Positions 14,407 through 24,967 of a DNA stretch of 64,000 nucleotides are shown in pieces; positions within the stretch are counted from its first letter, which is position 1; each line of letters starts with the position of its first letter. The stretch is taken from contig JANWIN010000004.1 in NCBI GenBank assembly GCA_025449905.1, positions 24,656-88,655 of the forward strand. Direction: 5' to 3'. The notes under the pieces are model-generated. The model had not been told where the DNA came from and did not search any database. It was given only the letters and a program-made list of their open reading frames with translations. The position numbers and the translations under genes were made by a program. The DNA is from Candidatus Saccharimonadales bacterium. GTDB taxonomy: Bacteria > Patescibacteriota > Saccharimonadia > Saccharimonadales > JANWIN01.

Positions 14407-14424
14407 TGGCTTCGGGACTAGGAT
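14407..14424. repeat. 18-bp direct repeat identical to the 3' end of the adjacent tRNA-Gln (att-like remnant)
   Basis: tggcttcgggactaggat is identical at 14407-14424 and 14577-14594; the flanks diverge immediately. Confidence 0.6.
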
Positions 14425-14576: not shown

Positions 14577-14650
14577 TGGCTTCGGGACTAGGATTCGAAC
14601 CTAGATTGCTGGGACCAGAACCCAGAGTCCTACCATTAGACGATCCCGAA
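14577..14650 (-). tRNA. tRNA-Gln (anticodon CTG)
   Basis: Minus-strand 74-nt cloverleaf TTCGGGATCGTCTAATGGTAGGACTCTGGGTTCTGGTCCCAGCAATCTAGGTTCGAATCCTAGTCCCGAAGCCA: 7-bp acceptor stem with U1:A72 and G73 (typical Gln identity), anticodon loop TTCTGGT, T-loop GGTTCGAATCC, encoded CCA. Confidence 0.85.
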
Positions 14651-14702: not shown

Positions 14703-15194
14703 ATGAGAACTATAAACCGCGAATACATGCGCAGCGTCATGTTTGGGATTGAAAATAGCCTGATTTCTACTGCTGGCCTAATTGCTGGCCTAAGCGTCGG
14801 CAGCAAGGATAAAGAGTTGGTTGTATTAGGTGCAGTAGTAGCCATTTTGATTGAAGCGGTAGCCATGGGTGTAGGTGAGTATCTTAGCGACGATGCTGTG
14901 CAAGAACTCGATAAGATTAAACGCCACCCGGACAATTCGATGCTTAGCGGACTATTGATGACTACGGCCGGTACGGTTGCCGGCCTGATACCGCTGGCGC
15001 CAGTAATCTTTCTGGACTACCCAACTTCATTAATAGTAAGCATCAGCGTAGCCCTCGCCGTACTGTTTTTGCTCGGTTATGTAAAAGGCAGGTTATTAAA
15101 AACCAACCCCATCAAGGGCGGCATAAAAATATTGATTGTCGGCGGTTTAGCTACTAGTGTCGGTGTTGTAGTTGGTCTAATCTTTAAAGTCTAA
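14703..15194 (+). CDS. VIT1/CCC1 family iron/manganese transporter-like membrane protein
   Basis: FGIENSLISTAGLIAGLSVG and repeated GxxxG helices are characteristic of the VIT family. Confidence 0.7.
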   Translation: MRTINREYMRSVMFGIENSLISTAGLIAGLSVGSKDKELVVLGAVVAILIEAVAMGVGEYLSDDAVQELDKIKRHPDNSMLSGLLMTTAGTVAGLIPLAPVIFLDYPTSLIVSISVALAVLFLLGYVKGRLLKTNPIKGGIKILIVGGLATSVGVVVGLIFKV

Positions 15195-15281: not shown

Positions 15282-16100
15282 ATGAAAGCAGAGCCGTTAA
15301 AAGAAGCACTAGATCGCTTTAGCCAACTAGAGGATATTGAAAGACGACGCGAAACAGCCAGTGAATTTATGAAAAATTCATTAGCGGTAGCCGCTAGAAC
15401 CGGTGAAGCTAAACTGGAAGAACTTTGTGCTTCAACCGAAGTTCGCGAGCCAATTTTGGAGTTCGCTAGAAGTTATGAAAGAGACAGAGAAGATCTAGCT
15501 TTCTTGAAAAGCCAACAAGACCTAGTCGATGCCGAGGACTTGGAATCCAAAACCAGGCAATTAGATGAACGTAGCTCAGATCCTCGGTTAAGATTTGCAG
15601 CTCGTTTCTTAGGTTATAGCTCATTAAATAACGCGAGTGATGAAACTGTGGAGACAACAGAGCCCGAACGAAGCGATAATGAGCCACCAATGGACTTAAC
15701 CTTCTTTGAAAGACCACCAGAAGTGGTAGCAGAAGATATGAAAGGGCTGACTATCAGTGTCAAGGGTAATAGTGCTGTCATAACCGAAACATTTCCCCAA
15801 GATGAAAAATATAATGAAAAGTGGGCTAGCGATCCGATTTTTGGCGATAACCGCGTTGATGTAATGGTAAGTAAGTATCGGGGGCATAAAATCCTTTATA
15901 TAAAGGCTGGTGACGCAAACCACAGTCTTGATTGTGTGCGTATAAATGGTATTGAAATTGACGGCAAAAAAATCAAAAGCGCCAACCAAATTTGTGAAGC
16001 TTTAGGTCTGGATGAAGAAGTTGTGGGTGATTTAAGATTCGATGGTAAAAAAATTAAAATTGTTAATTTAAAGCCGCTTAAAAACAAAAAGACTAGCTAG
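15282..16100 (+). CDS. hypothetical acidic protein
   Basis: ORF track; convergent with the helicase-MTase gene; no family recognised. Confidence 0.5.
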   Translation: MKAEPLKEALDRFSQLEDIERRRETASEFMKNSLAVAARTGEAKLEELCASTEVREPILEFARSYERDREDLAFLKSQQDLVDAEDLESKTRQLDERSSDPRLRFAARFLGYSSLNNASDETVETTEPERSDNEPPMDLTFFERPPEVVAEDMKGLTISVKGNSAVITETFPQDEKYNEKWASDPIFGDNRVDVMVSKYRGHKILYIKAGDANHSLDCVRINGIEIDGKKIKSANQICEALGLDEEVVGDLRFDGKKIKIVNLKPLKNKKTS

Positions 16101-16113
16101 ACGTAGCTTTTCC

Positions 16114-19100
16114 TTAGTCCTTTAAAAATACAGCACCCTGGGCCACCGAAAGCGGTCTAAACAATATGTGATTTCCTTGTTTGGTTAGTCGGATGCGAGA
16201 TAAACCACCCGCCACAATAACCTCGGGAGGTATATTTTTAATTTGTCTATAGCGTCGTTTTTTAGCAGTCATGTCTTTAAGGATTACCTCTTCTTCATCG
16301 GCAACATACTGATCATGACTATTAAAAGATGGCTTCAAAACAGTACCGCTATCTAAACGATACTCCTGATCAATTTTTTTAGGATTTCTAACTCGCGCAT
16401 TTCGTTTGACGAATTTAAGGCCGCTTAGCGACCTTTGACCCAATTGATTTGCTAAAGCATCAACATCAGTTAAGCAATCGGCTTGTTTTTCTAAAGTAAC
16501 TACACGACCCCTCAAATCGCCATTGCTATAGACTAGTCCGCTATAAGCTTTGACAACTTTGAAGCCCATTTGCCCAGCAAGATTATTGAACGTCCCGACA
16601 TCGGCCAGATCAAGTGAATATATCTGAGTTACTATAGCCTTGCCACCTACTTTAAGAACTCGGTTCATTTCTTTAAATATAGCTAATCGTTCCAAGGCTT
16701 CTGGATCAACCGATCTTTTGGACGGCCGATACTTTGTACTATCGAGCACTAAACCAAGGCTGACTACATCCATGGAGCCTGAAGCGATGGGTACATTAAC
16801 GACACTGCCGACAATGTTTTTAGGAGCTGGTCTATGATGATCAAAATGATTTAAATTGATATCTAGACTAGTAACATTCCTCGCTAGATTATCAGCAATA
16901 TGCTGTTTTAACATTTCGGGCCCCGAACCTAAATCCAAAATAGCCGGTGCAGCAAGCTCACCGTTTTTTCTATACTCTTCTATTATTGTGCTAGTTAAGC
17001 GTGCCATATTGGCTTGATAGCTGCGACTGGAAAGTTCTTTATAGGTTGATGCGTACTCGGCTCCGCTACTGGCAACCAAACGCCGAGTAGCTAATTCGCC
17101 TTGCTGCTTAAGCCGTCCAAACATTTTGTCGATGCGTTGGGTGGCATTGAAATAGTGTGCGGCCAGCTCTGGATTGACGTCGGCATTTGGTTCGACTTTT
17201 TCGTCTTCAGCGTCTATTAATGTTTTCCTATCAAGTTCAGATAGTGGCACGCCAAATAGTAATTTTCTAATAGCTTGATCTTTACGCTGAATATATTGGT
17301 GAATACCTTCTTCTATAGTTCCGGCGGCTATATAAGTATTGACTGTCAGCGGATTATTTCGACCCGGCCGCTGACATCTGCCAATTTCTTGCCTCTTTTC
17401 TGCCATTGTCCAGCCCTCGTTATAAAAACTAAGATCATCGGCCGCCGAAAAATCCACGCCGACGCCCGATGTCCTACCGCTAACTACCAATAACATTTTC
17501 TGATCCGAATTCTGAAATTCTTGCTGCAACTCGTACCTGGTTTCTTCTGGAGTATCCCCGTGAATTACACCAACTCTAACGTCGTCGGGGAGATCAAAAT
17601 AGTCAATTATAGAATCTTCACCAGCAATAACATCAGTAACAAAGTCGTTTACAAAAACCAGTGCTTTTCTCTTGTCTTCAAAAGTTTTTCTAAGTTCATT
17701 GCCGATATGCAAAGCTTTTGAAGGGATAATATGCGGTACAGCATCAACAGTCGCCGGGTTCAATAAAACGCGCCGGCAAGCTTGCATTTTTGATGAAAAA
17801 TCCAGTTCATCATCATCTAAAATAACCTGATATATTTCAGCTTCTGCTTCGCTAAGTGCAACATATTCAGTCTTTTCCTTTAGCATTGGTAAATCAATGC
17901 AGTCTTCCAGGCTTTTCATTTGCATTCTGGGTATTAACAAGCTGCGTAAATCTCTGACATCACGCGTGTCACCATTATCGCCGCCGCTAATCATTAGATA
18001 AGCCAGCTGTTTGTTACTGTATTTTGCGAACTTATCAGGATAAAGAACCCTTAGGGCCATGGCAATGTCACTGACTTTGTTTGGTGCCGGTGTTGCCGTG
18101 AGCATAACCGTGTAGGCATCTTTACGATTTAACAACTGGTCGGATAGCTCTACTAACTGGCTAGCTCTTTTACCGTCGCTTATATTATTTAACTGGTGTG
18201 CCTCGTCAATTATTAACATATCAAAACCAACTCGCTCCAAGGCCTTGCCGTAAGCTGGGTTGCTAAGTTTTTCATGCGAGATAAGAATGTAATCCCATTC
18301 TTCATTCCGAATATTTTCTACCATGGCTGGGCTGTTAACTTCCAAGACTCGAGGTCCTTCGCCAGTTTTAAAATATCCCAGTTGCTGACCGTTTGAATCC
18401 TTGCTATCCGATAAGTATGTTTGCCAAATTTGCTTTTCCAAAACACCGCTTGGCGCGATAACTACTGCCAGCTTTGCGCCAAGTTTCTCTTTGGCGATGA
18501 TGGCCGAAGCACTTTTGCCCAGTCCCGGATCATCAGCTATTAACATTCGTTTCTTTTCACAGATTTCTTTTATGTTAATTCGTTGGTTTAAATCCGGAAA
18601 TGGCCGCTCGGGTTTAAGGTTTTCAACTACTCTAGCAGGTAATTTAAAATCTACAAACAGAGCTAAGTAGTAGTCCATAACCTCATTAATCACCGAGTCT
18701 AAATGTTCATTATCCAGTTCGGCTACGCTTTCGCGAAGATTATCTAAATAACTAGCTATAATAGCAAAATCATCTTCAGCAGGGTTGCTGCGTTTTGTTC
18801 TGTGGTAAGTCGACAAACAGTCTTGCTTGATGACCTCAACTAAGGCCGCTTTAAGGCTAGGGCTTGATAAAAACTCAGCGGTTAAAGCCATTTGTTCAAA
18901 ATCGGGATTGCCGCGAAAAACAGTAAACTCGCCTAAGTAGTCAGCCAAGAAGCTTTTGACATAATCAATTGGCACATTTGTTAGATTTGGGCGGTAGTGA
19001 AAGAATAAGTCAGTTGCATATGCCGGTCCTAAAAGCTCTACCAATTTTTTAAATTCTTGGGCATCCAGACTCAATCCGGCTCTAATTTCTTCTGTAAACT

Positions 19101-19713
19101 CTCGAAAGTCAGTTTCGGTATCGCTGACTCGTGATCTTGCTCTTTGTTCGCGGTTGCGGAGGCTCTGACTAATAGTTGGTGCAAGATCTGGGGAAATATG
19201 AAGTTCAACCTCATCTTCAGTATTTTTATGAGGTCTAATATTCAGCGGATACTGATTCCTTAAACGCCTAGCAACTACTCGCAAATCTTCAACAGCGAAA
19301 CCGGTTAATCCAGCCAGCGAGCTGATACTAATCATATCTTCTGGTGCCGCAAGGTTTGCAGACAACCTATGCAGAACCTCCCAGTCACAATATAGAATCG
19401 CAGCATCTTCGGACGTAACGCCTAAACTAAAAAGCTGAGAAGCCTCGTCCATTACTTCATCAGTTAGCAACTTAACTTTAGATAATGGTAAGTCCAAAGC
19501 TAAAGCAATCTCAGGACGGCTAAATTTAATTCTCTCCCTAATTCCAGGTATTTCTTGGTTGACTTGGTCCTGGGCAGCGATTTCTATTAATCTCTCTTCA
19601 TATAGACGCCCAGAGTTGTCTTCCTCAACACCTCGGGCGGAAGCTTCTGCACTGTTTTGAGCTGAACTTGACTCTCTGACCATAAGACTGATTCTCTGAA
19701 CATATTTTATCAA
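16114..19713 (-). CDS. large SNF2-family (SF2) helicase fused to a C-terminal class I SAM-dependent methyltransferase domain; about 380-aa N-terminal region of unknown function
   Basis: Helicase motif I LIADDPGLGKSASAI, II MLIIDEAHQL, III MLTATPAPNK, VI QEIGRCQRPGR; MTase motif I AILDLGSGPE, post-II VVSLGLVLD, and RVLKVGGKAIV. Confidence 0.8.
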   Translation of the reverse strand: MIKYVQRISLMVRESSSAQNSAEASARGVEEDNSGRLYEERLIEIAAQDQVNQEIPGIRERIKFSRPEIALALDLPLSKVKLLTDEVMDEASQLFSLGVTSEDAAILYCDWEVLHRLSANLAAPEDMISISSLAGLTGFAVEDLRVVARRLRNQYPLNIRPHKNTEDEVELHISPDLAPTISQSLRNREQRARSRVSDTETDFREFTEEIRAGLSLDAQEFKKLVELLGPAYATDLFFHYRPNLTNVPIDYVKSFLADYLGEFTVFRGNPDFEQMALTAEFLSSPSLKAALVEVIKQDCLSTYHRTKRSNPAEDDFAIIASYLDNLRESVAELDNEHLDSVINEVMDYYLALFVDFKLPARVVENLKPERPFPDLNQRINIKEICEKKRMLIADDPGLGKSASAIIAKEKLGAKLAVVIAPSGVLEKQIWQTYLSDSKDSNGQQLGYFKTGEGPRVLEVNSPAMVENIRNEEWDYILISHEKLSNPAYGKALERVGFDMLIIDEAHQLNNISDGKRASQLVELSDQLLNRKDAYTVMLTATPAPNKVSDIAMALRVLYPDKFAKYSNKQLAYLMISGGDNGDTRDVRDLRSLLIPRMQMKSLEDCIDLPMLKEKTEYVALSEAEAEIYQVILDDDELDFSSKMQACRRVLLNPATVDAVPHIIPSKALHIGNELRKTFEDKRKALVFVNDFVTDVIAGEDSIIDYFDLPDDVRVGVIHGDTPEETRYELQQEFQNSDQKMLLVVSGRTSGVGVDFSAADDLSFYNEGWTMAEKRQEIGRCQRPGRNNPLTVNTYIAAGTIEEGIHQYIQRKDQAIRKLLFGVPLSELDRKTLIDAEDEKVEPNADVNPELAAHYFNATQRIDKMFGRLKQQGELATRRLVASSGAEYASTYKELSSRSYQANMARLTSTIIEEYRKNGELAAPAILDLGSGPEMLKQHIADNLARNVTSLDINLNHFDHHRPAPKNIVGSVVNVPIASGSMDVVSLGLVLDSTKYRPSKRSVDPEALERLAIFKEMNRVLKVGGKAIVTQIYSLDLADVGTFNNLAGQMGFKVVKAYSGLVYSNGDLRGRVVTLEKQADCLTDVDALANQLGQRSLSGLKFVKRNARVRNPKKIDQEYRLDSGTVLKPSFNSHDQYVADEEEVILKDMTAKKRRYRQIKNIPPEVIVAGGLSRIRLTKQGNHILFRPLSVAQGAVFLKD

Positions 19714-19810
19714 AATATTGCAAATTTGTAAAATATAGATAATAAGATAATTCTAGATAATAATATTGACCGACATCTAAAATTAGGATAGAATATAACC
19801 TGAAGTAATT

Positions 19811-21961
19811 ATGACACGTGAACTTGGTGAATATGGCAAAGCTTACAGAGAGGCTTTTGAAGGCTGGTCTGCATTAGAATTTCAAAAGGCATCTCAACCT
19901 GATTTAGCTGATACTTTTGAAGATGCCTCAACTCAGGCTCGCTTAATTATGGACATGCTAGAGGCAGAAGCGACCAATGATTTTCGCCAGCTAATTGATT
20001 ATGAATCGGCTCAAGCTGAAGATAAAACCCGCACAAACATTGAAGCTATTCGGGAAACTCCTACATACCAACGTGGTGGGAAAATTGCCGAGACGCTAGA
20101 AAACCAGATTCAAGCTCGTTTGGCTAGTTTGCCTGAAGTAAATCACTACAGTGAAGCAGATCAAAAAATGGCTACTGCTTTCGTGGTGGGCCGTATAGCT
20201 AGGATAGCTATTCCCCCTAAGGCAATTGAACTGCCGGCTGAGCAGGCAAGTAGTCCTTCTAAGCCAGAAAAGCCGATAAGCAATAAGCTTAAAATTCAAG
20301 TTTTTACTAAAGATAGCATGCTTTTAGTAAATGGAGTTGAAGCTATACCTTTAGCTCGTGAAGTAGGTTCTAGTAAATATACTGCCGAGGAAGAAAGTCT
20401 GATCGAAGAGTATCGTTTAACTACATTAAAATTTTTAGCCGACCACCCAGATGAGGAATTTTTAGCAAGCAAAATCTGGCAAGCTATTGACCGCACTGGT
20501 ACTCCATATAGTTCATCTGTCTGGGATAATTTTATCGGCGAGTGGCTGGAAGATTTAGAGATCAGAAATCAGTCGTTAATAAATGTCCGTAAGCCATCGC
20601 CCGTTGCAAAAAGACGCTATTACTCGCTTGGGGATTTTTCTGTTGATTTCGAAACGTTAAATGAAGATTCTGGTCTCGAACAATTAACTATTTTTAAATT
20701 GTCAAACGGTGAAGTCTTGGCGGGAAAAGCAGGTATGCTCGCTCACCTTCTATCGCGTGCCACAGTAGAAAATCCGGTAGTATCACAGATGCTGCTGGAC
20801 AAACGAGTATATTCCGACGAAGAACTGGTTGATCTAAAATACCCAGAAAATATATTAAGTGGGCTGGTATCAACTGTTAGACAGGATCTAAGAGAAGCTG
20901 GGGTTGAGCAGCAATACAGGATAGAAAAAGTAGACACTGGCGTCGCAAGAGAAGGTCGCGGCCGGAGAAATGAACCCGGCTATTATATGGAGCTGTTGAG
21001 CAGCGGCGAAATTGAAAAGCGAAAAGCTATCCATGAGGCTAACATAATTGCTAACTATATTTACTTGCGAAACGGACTACTCGAGGCCTTGAACTTACCT
21101 ACTCTACCTAGAGCTACTGTTGATATGTTGAAAACACTGGATGAATCTGTCAGCCAGGAAGAATTACTAGCTGTTCGTGATAGTGCCTATGAAACAATAC
21201 AAGTCCTTTTTGGCACCGAAGGCATAGAAAAACTATTAAACGAAGTAGATGCTTCTGATCCGCGCTACGGACTTGCCGATTGGGCGCTTCCTCTGTTAAA
21301 TCAACCTGAAAGTCGCCAAACCTTGGAAAATGCTCTAAGAGCTGATGTTGAAAGGGTTGTTGGCACCACAGAAGCAGAGCCAAAGACAGGCTCTCAAAGA
21401 ATCAAAAGAATTGACTACAACGTTAAAGGCGTCGGCACGCTTCCAGTCAATTATCCAGATGAAGATTTTGAAGTTGAGCATTTCAGCTTAGCGCTCTTGG
21501 CTTCAATTGATCAGGACGATAAAGATATTGTTGTGGCTCAAAATGGGCATGATGCTCCAACACCTCCGGCTAATAATGACAATGGTGAGAATCTTACACG
21601 TCGCAAAAGAAGGGAAGCTAAAATTCGGGAAATAAGGAGCCGAACAGTACCTATGGTTCGTTCTGCCATTCATGAGATGCATCAACGCGGTCTTCATAGG
21701 CCAGAGGGTTCGCTAGTGCCCCAAATTGTCAATGTTTTTCCAAAACTGACAACCGAAACTGTCGAACGTCATATTGGTAAGATTGAACATAAGAATCACG
21801 GGAGAGTTAGTGCGGCAGATATCTTATATGTACATATCGTGACAGAAACTGGCTACACTATAAACTACGAACAAAAGGCTATTAAAGAAGTAGTCAAAGA
21901 AGAACTTGAAAAATATGAGCGTGGTTTAGAAAGACGGCAGCAGGCCAACGGTCGTCATTAA
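19811..21961 (+). CDS. hypothetical 716-aa protein divergently transcribed from the helicase-MTase gene
   Basis: ORF track; AT-rich divergent promoter region 19714-19810; no recognisable catalytic motifs. Confidence 0.55.
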   Translation: MTRELGEYGKAYREAFEGWSALEFQKASQPDLADTFEDASTQARLIMDMLEAEATNDFRQLIDYESAQAEDKTRTNIEAIRETPTYQRGGKIAETLENQIQARLASLPEVNHYSEADQKMATAFVVGRIARIAIPPKAIELPAEQASSPSKPEKPISNKLKIQVFTKDSMLLVNGVEAIPLAREVGSSKYTAEEESLIEEYRLTTLKFLADHPDEEFLASKIWQAIDRTGTPYSSSVWDNFIGEWLEDLEIRNQSLINVRKPSPVAKRRYYSLGDFSVDFETLNEDSGLEQLTIFKLSNGEVLAGKAGMLAHLLSRATVENPVVSQMLLDKRVYSDEELVDLKYPENILSGLVSTVRQDLREAGVEQQYRIEKVDTGVAREGRGRRNEPGYYMELLSSGEIEKRKAIHEANIIANYIYLRNGLLEALNLPTLPRATVDMLKTLDESVSQEELLAVRDSAYETIQVLFGTEGIEKLLNEVDASDPRYGLADWALPLLNQPESRQTLENALRADVERVVGTTEAEPKTGSQRIKRIDYNVKGVGTLPVNYPDEDFEVEHFSLALLASIDQDDKDIVVAQNGHDAPTPPANNDNGENLTRRKRREAKIREIRSRTVPMVRSAIHEMHQRGLHRPEGSLVPQIVNVFPKLTTETVERHIGKIEHKNHGRVSAADILYVHIVTETGYTINYEQKAIKEVVKEELEKYERGLERRQQANGRH

Positions 21962-23763: not shown

Positions 23764-24324
23764 ATGCTTGATTTACCGGACGATGCTGTGGCGGCTGCCA
23801 AGGTTATATTAGGGCAACTACTAGTTCGAGAAATTAATGACTATAAATTGATGGGCAAAATCGTGGAAACTGAGGCCTACGACCAGAAAGATGCGGCTAG
23901 CCATAGTTACCGCGGCCAAACGCCGCGGACAGATGTTATGTTCGGCCCACCAGGCCGAGCTTATGTTTATTTTACCTACGGCATGCATTACTGCATGAAC
24001 ATAGTCATCGGCAAGCCAGGCTATGGTAGCGCTGTATTAATTCGGGCAATTGAACCTTTAAAAGGTATTGAGCAAATGAAAAAGAAGCGAGGAACGGATA
24101 ATATTCACCAATTAACTAATGGGCCGGCAAAATTATGTCAAGCTTTGAGCATCAATAAAGAATTCAATGGCCATGATTTATCCAAATTACCCCTAAATCT
24201 ACAACTTGGACAAAAAATTCCACCCAGTCAAATTTTCAAAACTACGCGTATAGGTATATCCAAAGACACCCACCGTTTATGGCGTTTTTACATCAAAGAC
24301 AACCTCTTCGTCTCTAAACCCTGA
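23764..24324 (+). CDS. mpg: DNA-3-methyladenine glycosylase (Mpg/AAG family)
   Basis: GKIVETEAYDQKDAASHSYRGQTPRTDVMFGPPGRAYVYFTYGMHYCMNIV is the core Mpg family signature. Confidence 0.85.
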   Translation: MLDLPDDAVAAAKVILGQLLVREINDYKLMGKIVETEAYDQKDAASHSYRGQTPRTDVMFGPPGRAYVYFTYGMHYCMNIVIGKPGYGSAVLIRAIEPLKGIEQMKKKRGTDNIHQLTNGPAKLCQALSINKEFNGHDLSKLPLNLQLGQKIPPSQIFKTTRIGISKDTHRLWRFYIKDNLFVSKP

Positions 24325-24340
24325 GGTATACTTAAGCATA

Positions 24341-24967
24341 ATGCGCGCTAAAAAAGTCCAGCCCCGGCAACAGCTTATTATTATTGCTTCTGCTGGAGTA
24401 CTTTTCTTGGTTTCAGCTGCCCTCGCTTCGGCACACACCCTAAAAGGTTTAGAGAAACAGGTTTTTGATTTTATTTATGGCTGGCCAAATGGGCTAAAAC
24501 CGGCGCTCTGGACTATTACGCAGTTGGGCAGTATATGGACGTTTATAGCCGCTAGTTTAATCTTTGTTTGGCAGCAAAAGAAGCACCTAGCCGCCAAATT
24601 AATAATTTGCGGCTTAAGTTCATATCTTCTGACATCCGTTCTAAAAGGCTTAATTGACAGGCCCAGGCCGGAACTTTTACTGCCTGGCGTCGTCACCAGA
24701 GAAATAATGGCCCCGGGCATGGGCTTTCCCTCAGGCCACACCGCCGCTATAACCGTAGCGGCTTTAATCATTGCCCCATATCTTAAGAAAAAATACCGCT
24801 GGTTGGCTTACTTAGCTATTGCAATGGTGGCAATTTCCAGAATATATCTGGGAGTACATGCGCCGCTTGATGTCGTCGGTGGTTTTGCTCTAGGGGTAAT
24901 AATTGTAAAGTCTTATGAGCTCTTGGCGCTCAAGCTAAAACTTGAAAAAGTTGACCAGCGGGACTAA
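24341..24967 (+). CDS. PAP2 family phosphatase (undecaprenyl-diphosphatase/phosphatidate phosphatase-like)
   Basis: PAP2 motifs KGLIDRPRP ... PSGHT ... RIYLGVHAPLD. Confidence 0.8.
   Translation: MRAKKVQPRQQLIIIASAGVLFLVSAALASAHTLKGLEKQVFDFIYGWPNGLKPALWTITQLGSIWTFIAASLIFVWQQKKHLAAKLIICGLSSYLLTSVLKGLIDRPRPELLLPGVVTREIMAPGMGFPSGHTAAITVAALIIAPYLKKKYRWLAYLAIAMVAISRIYLGVHAPLDVVGGFALGVIIVKSYELLALKLKLEKVDQRD

Follow-up and report, generated by a model that had tools for sequence, protein, structure and literature searches.

It is known that modules combining a helicase with a methyltransferase recur in genome conflict. In class 1 DISARM (the SNF2 protein DrmD with the methyltransferase DrmMI) and in Hma (helicase-methylase-ATPase) an SNF2-type helicase and a methyltransferase act as a pair in such conflict, and in both of them the methyltransferase is a separate N6-adenine DNA enzyme. 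DISARM is recognised by the DrmD equivalog score together with DrmA/DrmB (the DUF1998 pair of helicases), to which a nearby PLD nuclease may be added, and Hma by an HmaA helicase, a separate HmaB methylase and an HmaC ATPase; Type ISP enzymes join an Mrr/PD-(D/E)xK nuclease, a helicase, a gamma-N6A methyltransferase and a TRD in one chain. HELLS/DDM1 with DNMTs is a eukaryotic case of DNA methylation coupled to an SNF2 motor. The best mechanistic precedent for base access enabled by a motor is Dnmt5 of Cryptococcus, where a SAM methyltransferase and an SNF2 ATPase share one polypeptide and methylation by the fused domain requires ATP hydrolysis by the SNF2 part, independently of nucleosomes (10.1101/2020.01.05.895227).

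The locus described here is bacterial and differs from the eukaryotic Dnmt5 in that its fused protein, the product of gene B, carries an Rrp8-like domain instead of a C5-cytosine DNMT domain and has putative AAG-like and winged-helix partners, the products of genes A and C. A conceptual precedent for the pairing proposed for A and B is the R.PabI family, whose fold is unrelated to that of MPG/AAG. In base-excision restriction by this family an epigenetic immune pair can consist of a DNA glycosylase with a methyltransferase (PMC10273834). R.PabI excises unmethylated bases and uses no motor protein, and its logic is probably the opposite of that proposed for A and B. The nearest kin of the methyltransferase domain itself is Rrp8, or nucleomethylin (Pfam Methyltransf_8), an rRNA m1A methyltransferase (PMC3553958) which, unlike B, is a eukaryotic nucleolar rRNA enzyme and has no helicase.

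In the window, that is, the whole stretch of 64,000 nucleotides that was analysed, the ORF list confirmed the three ORFs at 15282-21961 as they were first described (here the cassette), and the VIT gene and the tRNA-Gln gene which had been placed beside them were both located. The neighbours of the cassette are the VIT gene, a secreted protein, MPG and PAP2. The features are:

14577..14650, minus strand: tRNA-Gln
14703..15194: VIT gene (Pfam VIT1, E 9e-23)
15282..16100, plus strand: gene A, 272-aa ORF
15693..16064, plus strand: putative MPG/AAG-like domain of A (PF02245 fold), residues ~138-261, from remote profile evidence
16114..19683, minus strand: gene B as read from the ATG at 19683 (1189 aa), SNF2 ATPase and Rrp8-like SAM methyltransferase
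16114..19713, minus strand: gene B as the mechanical ORF, 1199 aa from the TTG at 19713
16117..16488, minus strand: conserved C-terminal tail of B, aa 1076-1199, a small alpha/beta domain, confidently modelled
16489..17166, minus strand: three-helix lead-in and Rrp8/nucleomethylin-like class I methyltransferase domain of B, aa 850-1075
17224..18558, minus strand: SNF2-type ATPase core of B, aa 386-830, motifs I (GLGKS), II (DEAH), III (TATP) and VI (QxxGRxxRxG)
18559..19131, minus strand: family-specific conserved N-domain of B, aa 195-385, with an invariant 'RPFPDLNQRIN' at its end, directly before motif I
19132..19683, minus strand: variable N-terminal region of B, aa 11-194 (1199-aa numbering), weakly similar to a ~73-aa HTH-like repeat
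19684..19810: divergent control region between B and C, 22% GC; it contains a TAGATAATAA direct repeat and, placed back to back, the two promoter-like sites that score best in the locus
19811..21961, plus strand: gene C, divergent from B, 716 aa, modelled as a multi-domain DNA-binding protein
20273..20665, plus strand: predicted OmpR/PhoB/CadC-type winged-helix DNA-binding domain of C, residues ~155-285, with beta-sheet, three helices and wing
20723..20995, plus strand: probable second winged-helix unit of C, residues ~305-395, H-H-H-beta-beta
23764..24324: canonical MPG, a separate gene of the window, 1.8 kb from the cassette

The start of B is most likely the ATG at 19683, predicted to give 1189 aa, since the exact 1189-aa product is found in the protein collection, from which the 1199-aa product is absent, and since the TTG-extended ORF would contain the best minus-strand promoter-like site, whose -10 ends at 19704. 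The spacer between B and C is AT-rich as was first described, but with the ATG start it measures 127 bp (22% GC) and not 97 bp (21% GC).

B is a genuine fusion of an SNF2 ATPase with a class I, non-DPPY methyltransferase, in which both the ATPase and the SAM-binding motifs are intact according to Pfam and alignments. Both lobes of the motor scored above the Pfam thresholds (SNF2-rel_dom, PF00176, aa 387-640, E 8e-15, 55.1 bits against a cutoff of 24.9; Helicase_C, PF00271, aa 678-784, E 2e-10, 41.2 bits against 23.5), and motifs I, II (DExH), III and VI are intact, which places B among the SNF2 family ATPases. The motifs quoted in the first-pass annotation are all present in the translation, and the ATPase motif residues are invariant in an alignment of 17 family sequences. 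The best PDB match of this core is SsoRad54 (1Z63, E 2e-16), a dsDNA translocase.

The methyltransferase domain was matched by Methyltransf_11 (aa 926-1027, E 2e-6), while Methyltransf_8 (PF05148) reached 24.5 bits with the window protein, under the 27-bit Pfam cutoff; a precomputed PF05148 match is present in some B homologues. By structural comparison its closest neighbour is the Rrp8-type class I fold, with the SAM site conserved, and the domain is specifically Rrp8-like. The next-best structural matches have small molecules, lipids and proteins as their substrates, and Bud23 and other rRNA/tRNA methyltransferases are also among the fold matches. The domain is not degenerate: the SAM motifs 'ilD..SGPE' and 'S.DiN..HF' are intact in B, strictly conserved in the family and at least 90% conserved across 70 homologues. 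No (D/N/S)PP(Y/F/W/H) motif of N6-adenine or N4-cytosine DNA methyltransferases occurs in B, which bears out the earlier remark that DPPY/NPPY is lacking. To our knowledge the domain belongs to no known class of DNA methyltransferase.

Conservation of the B family begins at about aa 200, and neither the conserved N-domain (aa 195-385) nor the whole N-terminus had a significant match in the PDB; no homologue is known for this family-specific N-domain. In front of the N-domain, aa 99-186 resemble the ~73-aa HTH-like repeat (hhalign, E 6e-4, probability 28%), which was found in tandem in six ORFs from six loci, with 13 copies in one protein (P0021). B proteins without C often have N-terminal extensions of 200-800 aa, and most B genes without C carry long N-terminal arrays of HTH-like repeats or have separate upstream ORFs that cluster with the B extensions. 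No BLAST or HMM match indicated that C or A is fused within the long extensions of other B proteins, and this possibility was discarded.

The first-pass annotation had set B apart from Type ISP and DISARM, and our comparisons agree and extend this to Hma. The NCBIfam DrmD model gave 54 bits against a cutoff of 950 and aligned to the SNF2 core alone, the PADLOC HmaA model matched only aa 389-563, and no DrmA, DrmB, DrmC or HmaC gene is present near B, which also lacks the nuclease domain and the N6A motif of Type ISP enzymes. PADLOC and NCBIfam models of DrmD, ZorD and HmaA match the ATPase core of B, and none of the PADLOC defence models matches it beyond this generic SNF2 core. A and C had no PADLOC match save a marginal one for A (E 0.011), and the cassette contains neither a nuclease nor any other effector. 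Full-text literature searches yielded no description of the cassette.

The 716-aa product of gene C had been described as having no recognisable domains. Its AF2 model (pLDDT 87) contains the beta-sheet, three helices and wing of the OmpR/PhoB winged-helix fold, and we would now assign to it DNA-binding domains of the OmpR/CadC type. Pfam gave no match to C, Trans_reg_C included. The protein differs from the OmpR, PhoB, CadC and ToxR effectors in having no receiver or membrane domain, in its length and in its several further domains; the members of its family measure 660-800 aa and share several conserved domains. A relationship between C and the 73-aa HTH-like repeat or the N-terminus of B was rejected, as no signal was obtained. 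The homologues of C came from BLASTP on neighbouring ORFs and from an exhaustive HMMER search, in which only 36 cluster representatives were found among 1.84e9 proteins; a word-indexed protein search with C, then with the A+C concatenate, returned the window's own C alone. C homologues lie divergent from B in L001 (33% identity, E 1e-130), L002, L003, L004, L008 and L011. The co-conservation of C with B held in all seven close loci and for both distant C homologues tested, but C is confined to one subclade of Saccharibacteria and most B genes are without it.

The 272-aa product of gene A, at first regarded as unknown and peripheral, has the most widely conserved relatives among the partners of B, and its C-terminal half is, to judge from remote similarity of sequences and profiles (probabilities 28-87%), a divergent MPG/AAG fold. 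The five best PDB matches of the A-family profile are all human AAG (E ~0.15), and hhalign likewise gave remote homology to the core of the MPG fold: A aligned to the window's MPG at 83.5%, and the long-A clade alone aligned to a 79-sequence MPG profile at 87.4% (E 3.7e-6, 119 columns). PF02245 was matched directly by four of 22 A-family members (best E 2.9e-6); for the A of the window no Pfam match, PF02245 included, was found at E up to 1. The alignment of the domain to residues 2-147 of MPG is co-linear and takes in the positions aligned to the 'Y-G' wedge and the Arg motif, and window A keeps the positions which hhalign aligns to the intercalating-Tyr motif of AAG ('YRG') and to its Arg motif ('CVRI'). 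Unlike MPG/AAG, A-like domains span only ~100-130 aa and are without the loop that corresponds in the alignment to 'AAHSRGG', a segment with a His, and the clade of the window has an additional 135-aa acidic N-terminal region. Moreover, window A has Phe at the position of the catalytic Glu (human E125) and Gln at that of the stacking Tyr (Y127); the whole long-A clade has no acidic residue at the aligned Glu position, whereas most short A-like proteins retain an [E/D]-x-[Y/F] dyad. Since the catalytic Glu is missing, base excision cannot be assumed for window A. The protein had been called acidic, which is true of the whole (pI 4.96) but comes from the N-terminal half alone (pI 4.6, whereas the C-terminal half has 7.2); residues 1-135 can be aligned only inside the Saccharibacteria clade. 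Across that clade A shows 35-45% identity with invariant Cys-Val-Arg and Gly-Leu positions, and in L001 (45% identity, E 5e-79) and L002 (35%, E 5e-48) a homologue directly follows B in convergent orientation.

In CPR lineages that are far apart, B is repeatedly found joined to A-like genes and to DNA-binding modules. The order A-B-C occurs with identical geometry and unrelated flanks in the window, L001, L002 (where the contig ends within C), L003/L004 and L008, while L011 has C and B and no A. An A-like ORF lies less than 400 bp from B in 26-28 of 79 loci (20-22 of the 53 having both flanks), in two arrangements, downstream-convergent (15) and upstream-codirectional (10-11); about 34 ORFs in all loci matched the A profiles, two genuine MPGs included, and 28 of them adjoin B. 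More than half of the B genes are surrounded by housekeeping genes with no A-like ORF beside them, so that A is not obligatory for B; one lies next to UvrA (L063). At the loci without A the neighbours are heterogeneous and no alternative conserved partner was found.

B is not a universal core gene, being present in 73 of 185,579 species genomes with different flanks in every locus, and the family appears to be confined to CPR/Patescibacteria, with one weak match in a DPANN archaeon. The cassette is probably accessory. In relatives, 47 loci anchored on MPG were compared, and it lies within 10 kb in none of them; as these relatives are too divergent (at most 68% identity, with only MPG-PAP2 conserved), this island test is suggestive and not decisive. 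Its GC content (0.418 against 0.436 ± 0.013, about -1.4 sd) reveals no clear compositional island, and no credible direct or inverted repeats flank it. One MAG has two B copies (L040/L049) and L042 a tandem pair; a large serine recombinase lies less than 6 kb from B in seven loci, L006 has a T4SS coupling protein and ORF6N, and L005 toxin-antitoxin genes. The full B architecture was not found in 50,697 phage records, 72,556 plasmids or IMG/VR, which yielded the SNF2 core alone at 20-29% identity, and PHROGs gave generic SNF2-core matches alone.

We are inclined to suggest, tentatively and at somewhat less than an even chance, that A, B and C work together as a single module for DNA-directed modification, an accessory one that does not extend beyond CPR/Patescibacteria. 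In such a module C, or in other lineages the HTH-like arrays fused to B, would set B on particular DNA, and ATP-driven translocation or distortion of the duplex by B would expose a base which the Rrp8-like domain would then methylate. By analogy with Rrp8 the target could be a purine ring nitrogen, for example N1 of adenine. The AAG-like partner would recognise the methylated purine; in the lineages that keep the Glu-x-Tyr dyad it would probably excise the base, and in the clade of the window (Phe-x-Gln) A would more likely only bind it, as reader, shield or regulator. A role in conflict, either in defence, which is plausible, or in the functioning of mobile elements, would be the likeliest biology on account of the patchy distribution, the variable DNA-binding arrays, the occasional duplication and the occasional recombinase, toxin-antitoxin or T4SS neighbours, and is the least supported step.

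Helicase-methyltransferase proteins are known from phage P1 (DarB) and from conjugative elements, and by this likeness B could be an orphan processive DNA methyltransferase of CPR mobile elements, protecting incoming or resident DNA or counteracting restriction, with A and C accessory. The recombinases, the T4SS and toxin-antitoxin genes, the different flanks and the duplicated copies fit this, but we consider it unlikely given that the full architecture was not seen in the phage, plasmid and IMG/VR sets, that most loci, the window included, have ordinary chromosomal neighbours and no integrase, and that the methyltransferase falls outside the known DNA-methyltransferase classes. It is also quite unlikely that there is no system at all, with B standing alone, C as its divergent transcription factor and A as a decaying MPG paralogue nearby by chance. 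B is indeed alone at most loci, OmpR-type winged-helix proteins are typically regulators, the C/B spacer has back-to-back promoter-like sites and a direct repeat, and window A has lost its catalytic residues. Chance and decay are nevertheless insufficient to explain A-like ORFs adjoining B in ~28 loci of distant CPR classes in two independent arrangements, or the identity and invariant residues of A, and C, with its length and several conserved domains, far exceeds a simple repressor.

The descent of the A domain from an alkylation-repair glycosylase could instead indicate housekeeping surveillance of DNA damage, in which the SNF2 motor would, much as Mfd, RapA or CSB do, clear or remodel stalled complexes and bring an AAG-like lesion sensor to alkylated bases, the methyltransferase being regulatory or protein-directed. 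Rad26/CSB and RapA serve repair and transcription, B has a weak RapA match, and many B genes lie amid housekeeping genes such as UvrA. This has, in our view, a small probability, as the very sparse and patchy spread is unexpected for a repair pathway, a canonical MPG is already available 1.8 kb away, the strictly conserved SAM site argues for real methyl transfer, and the hypervariable DNA-binding arrays suggest sequence targeting and not lesion scanning. An RNA- or ribosome-directed enzyme, with B as an Rrp8-like base methyltransferase of rRNA or other RNA that uses its helicase-like domain to remodel RNA or RNPs, and with unrelated neighbouring genes, would agree with the rRNA substrate of the closest characterised relative (PMC3553958) and with Bud23 and the rRNA/tRNA methyltransferases among the fold matches. 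Against it, the best SNF2 match is SsoRad54, and the associated modules are DNA-directed (the predicted winged helix of C, the HTH-like arrays, the glycosylase fold of A). SNF2-family motors act on duplex DNA. An rRNA modifier would moreover be expected to be near-universal in the lineage, and B occurs in ~73 scattered species, so that we regard this explanation as very improbable.

CPR bacteria are ultra-small and have minimal genomes and few recognised defence systems. An Rrp8-type methyltransferase on a DNA motor, a recurrent glycosylase-derived partner and the restriction of the family to CPR all appear to be undescribed. If B methylates DNA, it would represent a new enzyme class for prokaryotic DNA modification, and whether an AAG-fold protein reads or erases a mark that an enzyme has written could be tested directly; the MPG/AAG-derived partner points to Watson-Crick or minor-groove chemistry of purines and not to classical m6A or m5C marks. 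The full 'write-and-read' alkylation of DNA, in which an SNF2 translocase, guided by winged-helix or HTH modules, deliberately installs an N-methylpurine (for example m1A or m3A) on selected DNA through an Rrp8-type domain that came from RNA modification, and a co-evolving, cut-down AAG-family protein excises it, the abasic sites destroying invading DNA, or in the clade of the window binds the base as reader or shield, is a doubtful proposition at present. If true, bacteria with minimal genomes would be using enzymatically programmed DNA 'damage' for immunity or for epigenetic signalling. Even with a mundane role, the analysis offers putative fold assignments for A and C and a defined architecture for a family of ~100 proteins.

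The three open reading frames that the first-pass annotation had placed at 15282-21961 are real, and one flank of the cassette they form carries a tRNA gene and a VIT-family gene:

14577-14650, minus strand, tRNA-Gln gene
14703-15194, VIT-family gene, on the same flank as tRNA-Gln
15282-16100, plus strand, gene A, 272 aa
16114-19713, minus strand, gene B, 1199 aa from TTG or 1189 aa from the ATG at 19683
19811-21961, plus strand, gene C, 716 aa

Reading B from TTG does give the 1199 residues claimed for it, but the ATG at 19683 is most likely the true start, since the exact 1189-aa product is present in the public protein collection and the TTG-extended version is not, and since the best minus-strand promoter-like site ends within the TTG extension. 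With this start the divergent spacer between B and C is 127 bp long (22% GC), and the region's two best promoter-like sites lie in it back to back. Between these sites a 10-nt direct repeat, TAGATAATAA, occurs twice at 19737-19763 with its starts 17 bp apart, a putative operator of C, the winged-helix protein.

Every motif that had been quoted for B was found in it, and its sequence contains no DPPY-type motif, as had been noted. The proposed fusion of a helicase to a class I methyltransferase was borne out by Pfam, which gives an SNF2-related domain, Helicase_C and Methyltransf_11 above threshold, with Methyltransf_8 scoring just under it. The methyltransferase domain is outside all known DNA methyltransferase classes. 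It can be placed in a nucleic-acid base N-methyltransferase lineage because Rrp8, to which it has been likened, makes m1A645 of yeast 25S rRNA (PMC3553958). The closest relative of the SNF2 core is a Sulfolobus Rad54-like dsDNA translocase. Conservation among relatives begins near residue 200 and extends to the C-terminus, with ATPase motifs I, II, III and VI invariant in a 17-sequence alignment and SAM-binding motifs I and II at least 90% conserved among 70 members. For the conserved N-domain (aa 195-385) and the C-terminal tail (aa 1076-1199) homology comparison gave no family assignment.

B proteins differ in the length of their N-terminal extension, which is close to zero in some and reaches about 990 aa in others. 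The extension of the 1967-aa homologue P0021 (locus L006, 10001-15904) consists of 13 tandem copies of a module of about 73 aa at near-perfect spacing, with the pattern 'TGIYTD.EG.EWA...LG.....V..R......GR.......LY' and faint Pfam HTH matches. Related arrays, fused to B or as separate ORFs upstream, occur in five further loci (L017, L023, L028, L031 and L035), and the window's B matches the module weakly at aa 99-186.

About 30 full-length relatives of B were found in the protein database, and a pattern scan in which each of 185,579 species was represented by a single genome gave 73 B-type loci. Most record titles of these loci bear CPR names (Saccharibacteria, Levy-, Roizman-, Kaiser-, Taylor-, Vogel-, Morani-, Magasanik-, Doudna-, Peri-/Peregrini- and Gracilibacteria); 13 B-bearing MAGs are titled Gammaproteobacteria or Bdellovibrionales, an assignment that is that of the record title alone. 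One weak match (24% identity) spanning the SNF2 and methyltransferase regions was found in a Micrarchaeota (DPANN) MAG (L079, 55-1869), which could reflect either transfer between episymbiotic lineages or mis-binning. The full architecture was not found in GenBank phages, PLSDB plasmids or IMG/VR, where the generic SNF2 core alone matched, and matches to PADLOC, NCBIfam and PHROG models were confined to that core. B is duplicated as a tandem pair in L042 (8201-17176) and as two copies on separate contigs of one MAG, CAZXIF01 (L040 and L049). It is broken into several ORFs in L026, L037, L062, L067 and L078; the breaks may mark pseudogenes or errors of assembly, and in L067, a Gracilibacteria locus, they may stem from an alternative genetic code.

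A word-indexed protein search with C returned C itself and no relatives, while an exhaustive HMMER search found 36 cluster representatives among 1.84 billion. By direct comparison, L001 (33% identity, E 1e-130), L002, L003/L004, L008 and L011 each carry a homologue upstream of B in divergent orientation. Both of the distant relatives that were checked are also B-linked: P0143 (25% identity) adjoins a truncated B gene in L153, and P0124, at a contig end, comes from the same assembly as L069, a contig with B and A. In a single case (L155, 2766-3572, Saccharimonadales assembly JBDHUJ01) an Exo_endo_phos gene of the ExoIII/AP-endonuclease family is convergent after the C homologue, a neighbour that would be relevant if the system makes abasic sites.

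An HMM iterated from A was run over ORFs from all six frames of every fetched locus. It recovered small A-like ORFs adjoining many B genes and, unexpectedly, picked up a canonical methylpurine-DNA glycosylase (MPG) in the window itself (23764-24324; PF02245, E 9e-68). For all further comparisons every canonical MPG was removed from the A profile. Against PDB the top five matches of this profile were all human AAG, each with a marginal E value (about 0.15) and with long, co-linear alignments. With hhalign the A family matched the window's MPG at 83.5% probability. The long Saccharibacteria A clade alone matched a 79-sequence MPG profile at 87.4% (E 3.7e-6, 119 columns), and the two other A subgroups aligned there as well, at 42% and 28%. 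PF02245 was hit directly by 4 of 22 family members (best E 2.9e-6). On these comparisons A derives from MPG/AAG. No partner of B is spread more widely: an A-like ORF lies at most 400 bp from B in 26-28 of 79 loci (20-22 of the 53 having both flanks). Two independent arrangements are seen, the A-like ORF being downstream of B and convergent with it in 15 loci, and upstream in the same direction as B in 10-11.

In most short A-like forms the AAG catalytic dyad survives as [E/D]-x-[Y/F]; those of the L064 and L045 type have Glu-x-Tyr. In the window's clade the position reads x-[P/A]-Q, with Phe and Gln in the window's A itself, and the 'YRG' and 'CVRI' positions are kept, aligned to AAG motifs that we take, from AAG structures, to be those of the intercalating Tyr and the Arg. 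Having lost the dyad and kept these motifs, the A protein of the window probably binds its target without acting on it as an enzyme. Its acidic N-terminal half is specific to its clade. Given the canonical MPG at 23764, the genome encodes a true MPG and a degenerate A paralogue, both within 8 kb. The MPG gene is followed by a PAP2 phosphatase gene (23764-24967 for the pair).

The flanks of the cassette differ in each locus that bears it. In none of 47 MPG-anchored loci of relatives, each at least 6 kb long, does any of the three genes A, B and C lie within 10 kb; the MPG-PAP2 pair alone is syntenic, in several related metagenomic contigs, and everything upstream of MPG varies. The GC content of the cassette is slightly low (0.418 against 0.436 ± 0.013), and no repeats bounding it were found. 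On the tRNA side away from the cassette a perfect 18-nt direct repeat, TGGCTTCGGGACTAGGAT, is present at 14407-14424 and 14577-14594, 170 bp apart, the second copy forming the tRNA-Gln gene's 3' end; the pair resembles the att-site scar that an element integrating into the tRNA would leave. The segment 10063-12141 of the window holds a second class I SAM methyltransferase, free-standing and 313 aa long (Methyltransf_25/31/11), beside a regulator of the Crp family and an orphan receiver protein of the response-regulator type.

Among the relatives, a large serine recombinase lies at most 6 kb from B in 7 loci, L021 (5571-7184) among them, and in L010 (12245-14032) the ORF directly downstream of B has an N-terminus that we read as that of a putative OLD/AAA_15-like ATPase. 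Both features are hints of mobile or defence-rich segments carrying some of the B copies. Toxin-antitoxin pairs were seen at L005 and a T4SS coupling protein at L006. In most loci lacking A, B stands among housekeeping genes. B is an accessory gene, probably mobile on evolutionary timescales.

Of the four module types, the SNF2 motor, the winged-helix/HTH modules and the glycosylase fold are DNA-directed, and the fourth is a base N-methyltransferase. As to substrate, outcome and biological role, we infer, as the simplest joint reading, that the module would methylate a DNA base in a targeted and ATP-dependent way, with a ring nitrogen of a purine as the most plausible site. The dedicated AAG-derived protein would recognise this mark, and would excise it where the catalytic dyad survives and bind it without excision in the window's clade. 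An SNF2 ATPase gating a fused methyltransferase has a precedent in Dnmt5 (10.1101/2020.01.05.895227), and immune pairs of methyltransferase and glycosylase have one in the restriction glycosylases (PMC10273834). No description of a B-type family was found in the literature searched; a 2026 survey of CPR methyltransferases mentions SNF2 association in general terms only. The suggestion that the cluster is an undescribed defence or nucleic-acid-modification system is supported in part and substantially sharpened. We rate the locus as belonging with the helicase-methyltransferase modules. The less probable reading, in which DNA alkylation is written as a programmed mark and an AAG-like protein reads or erases it, would be categorically new if true.
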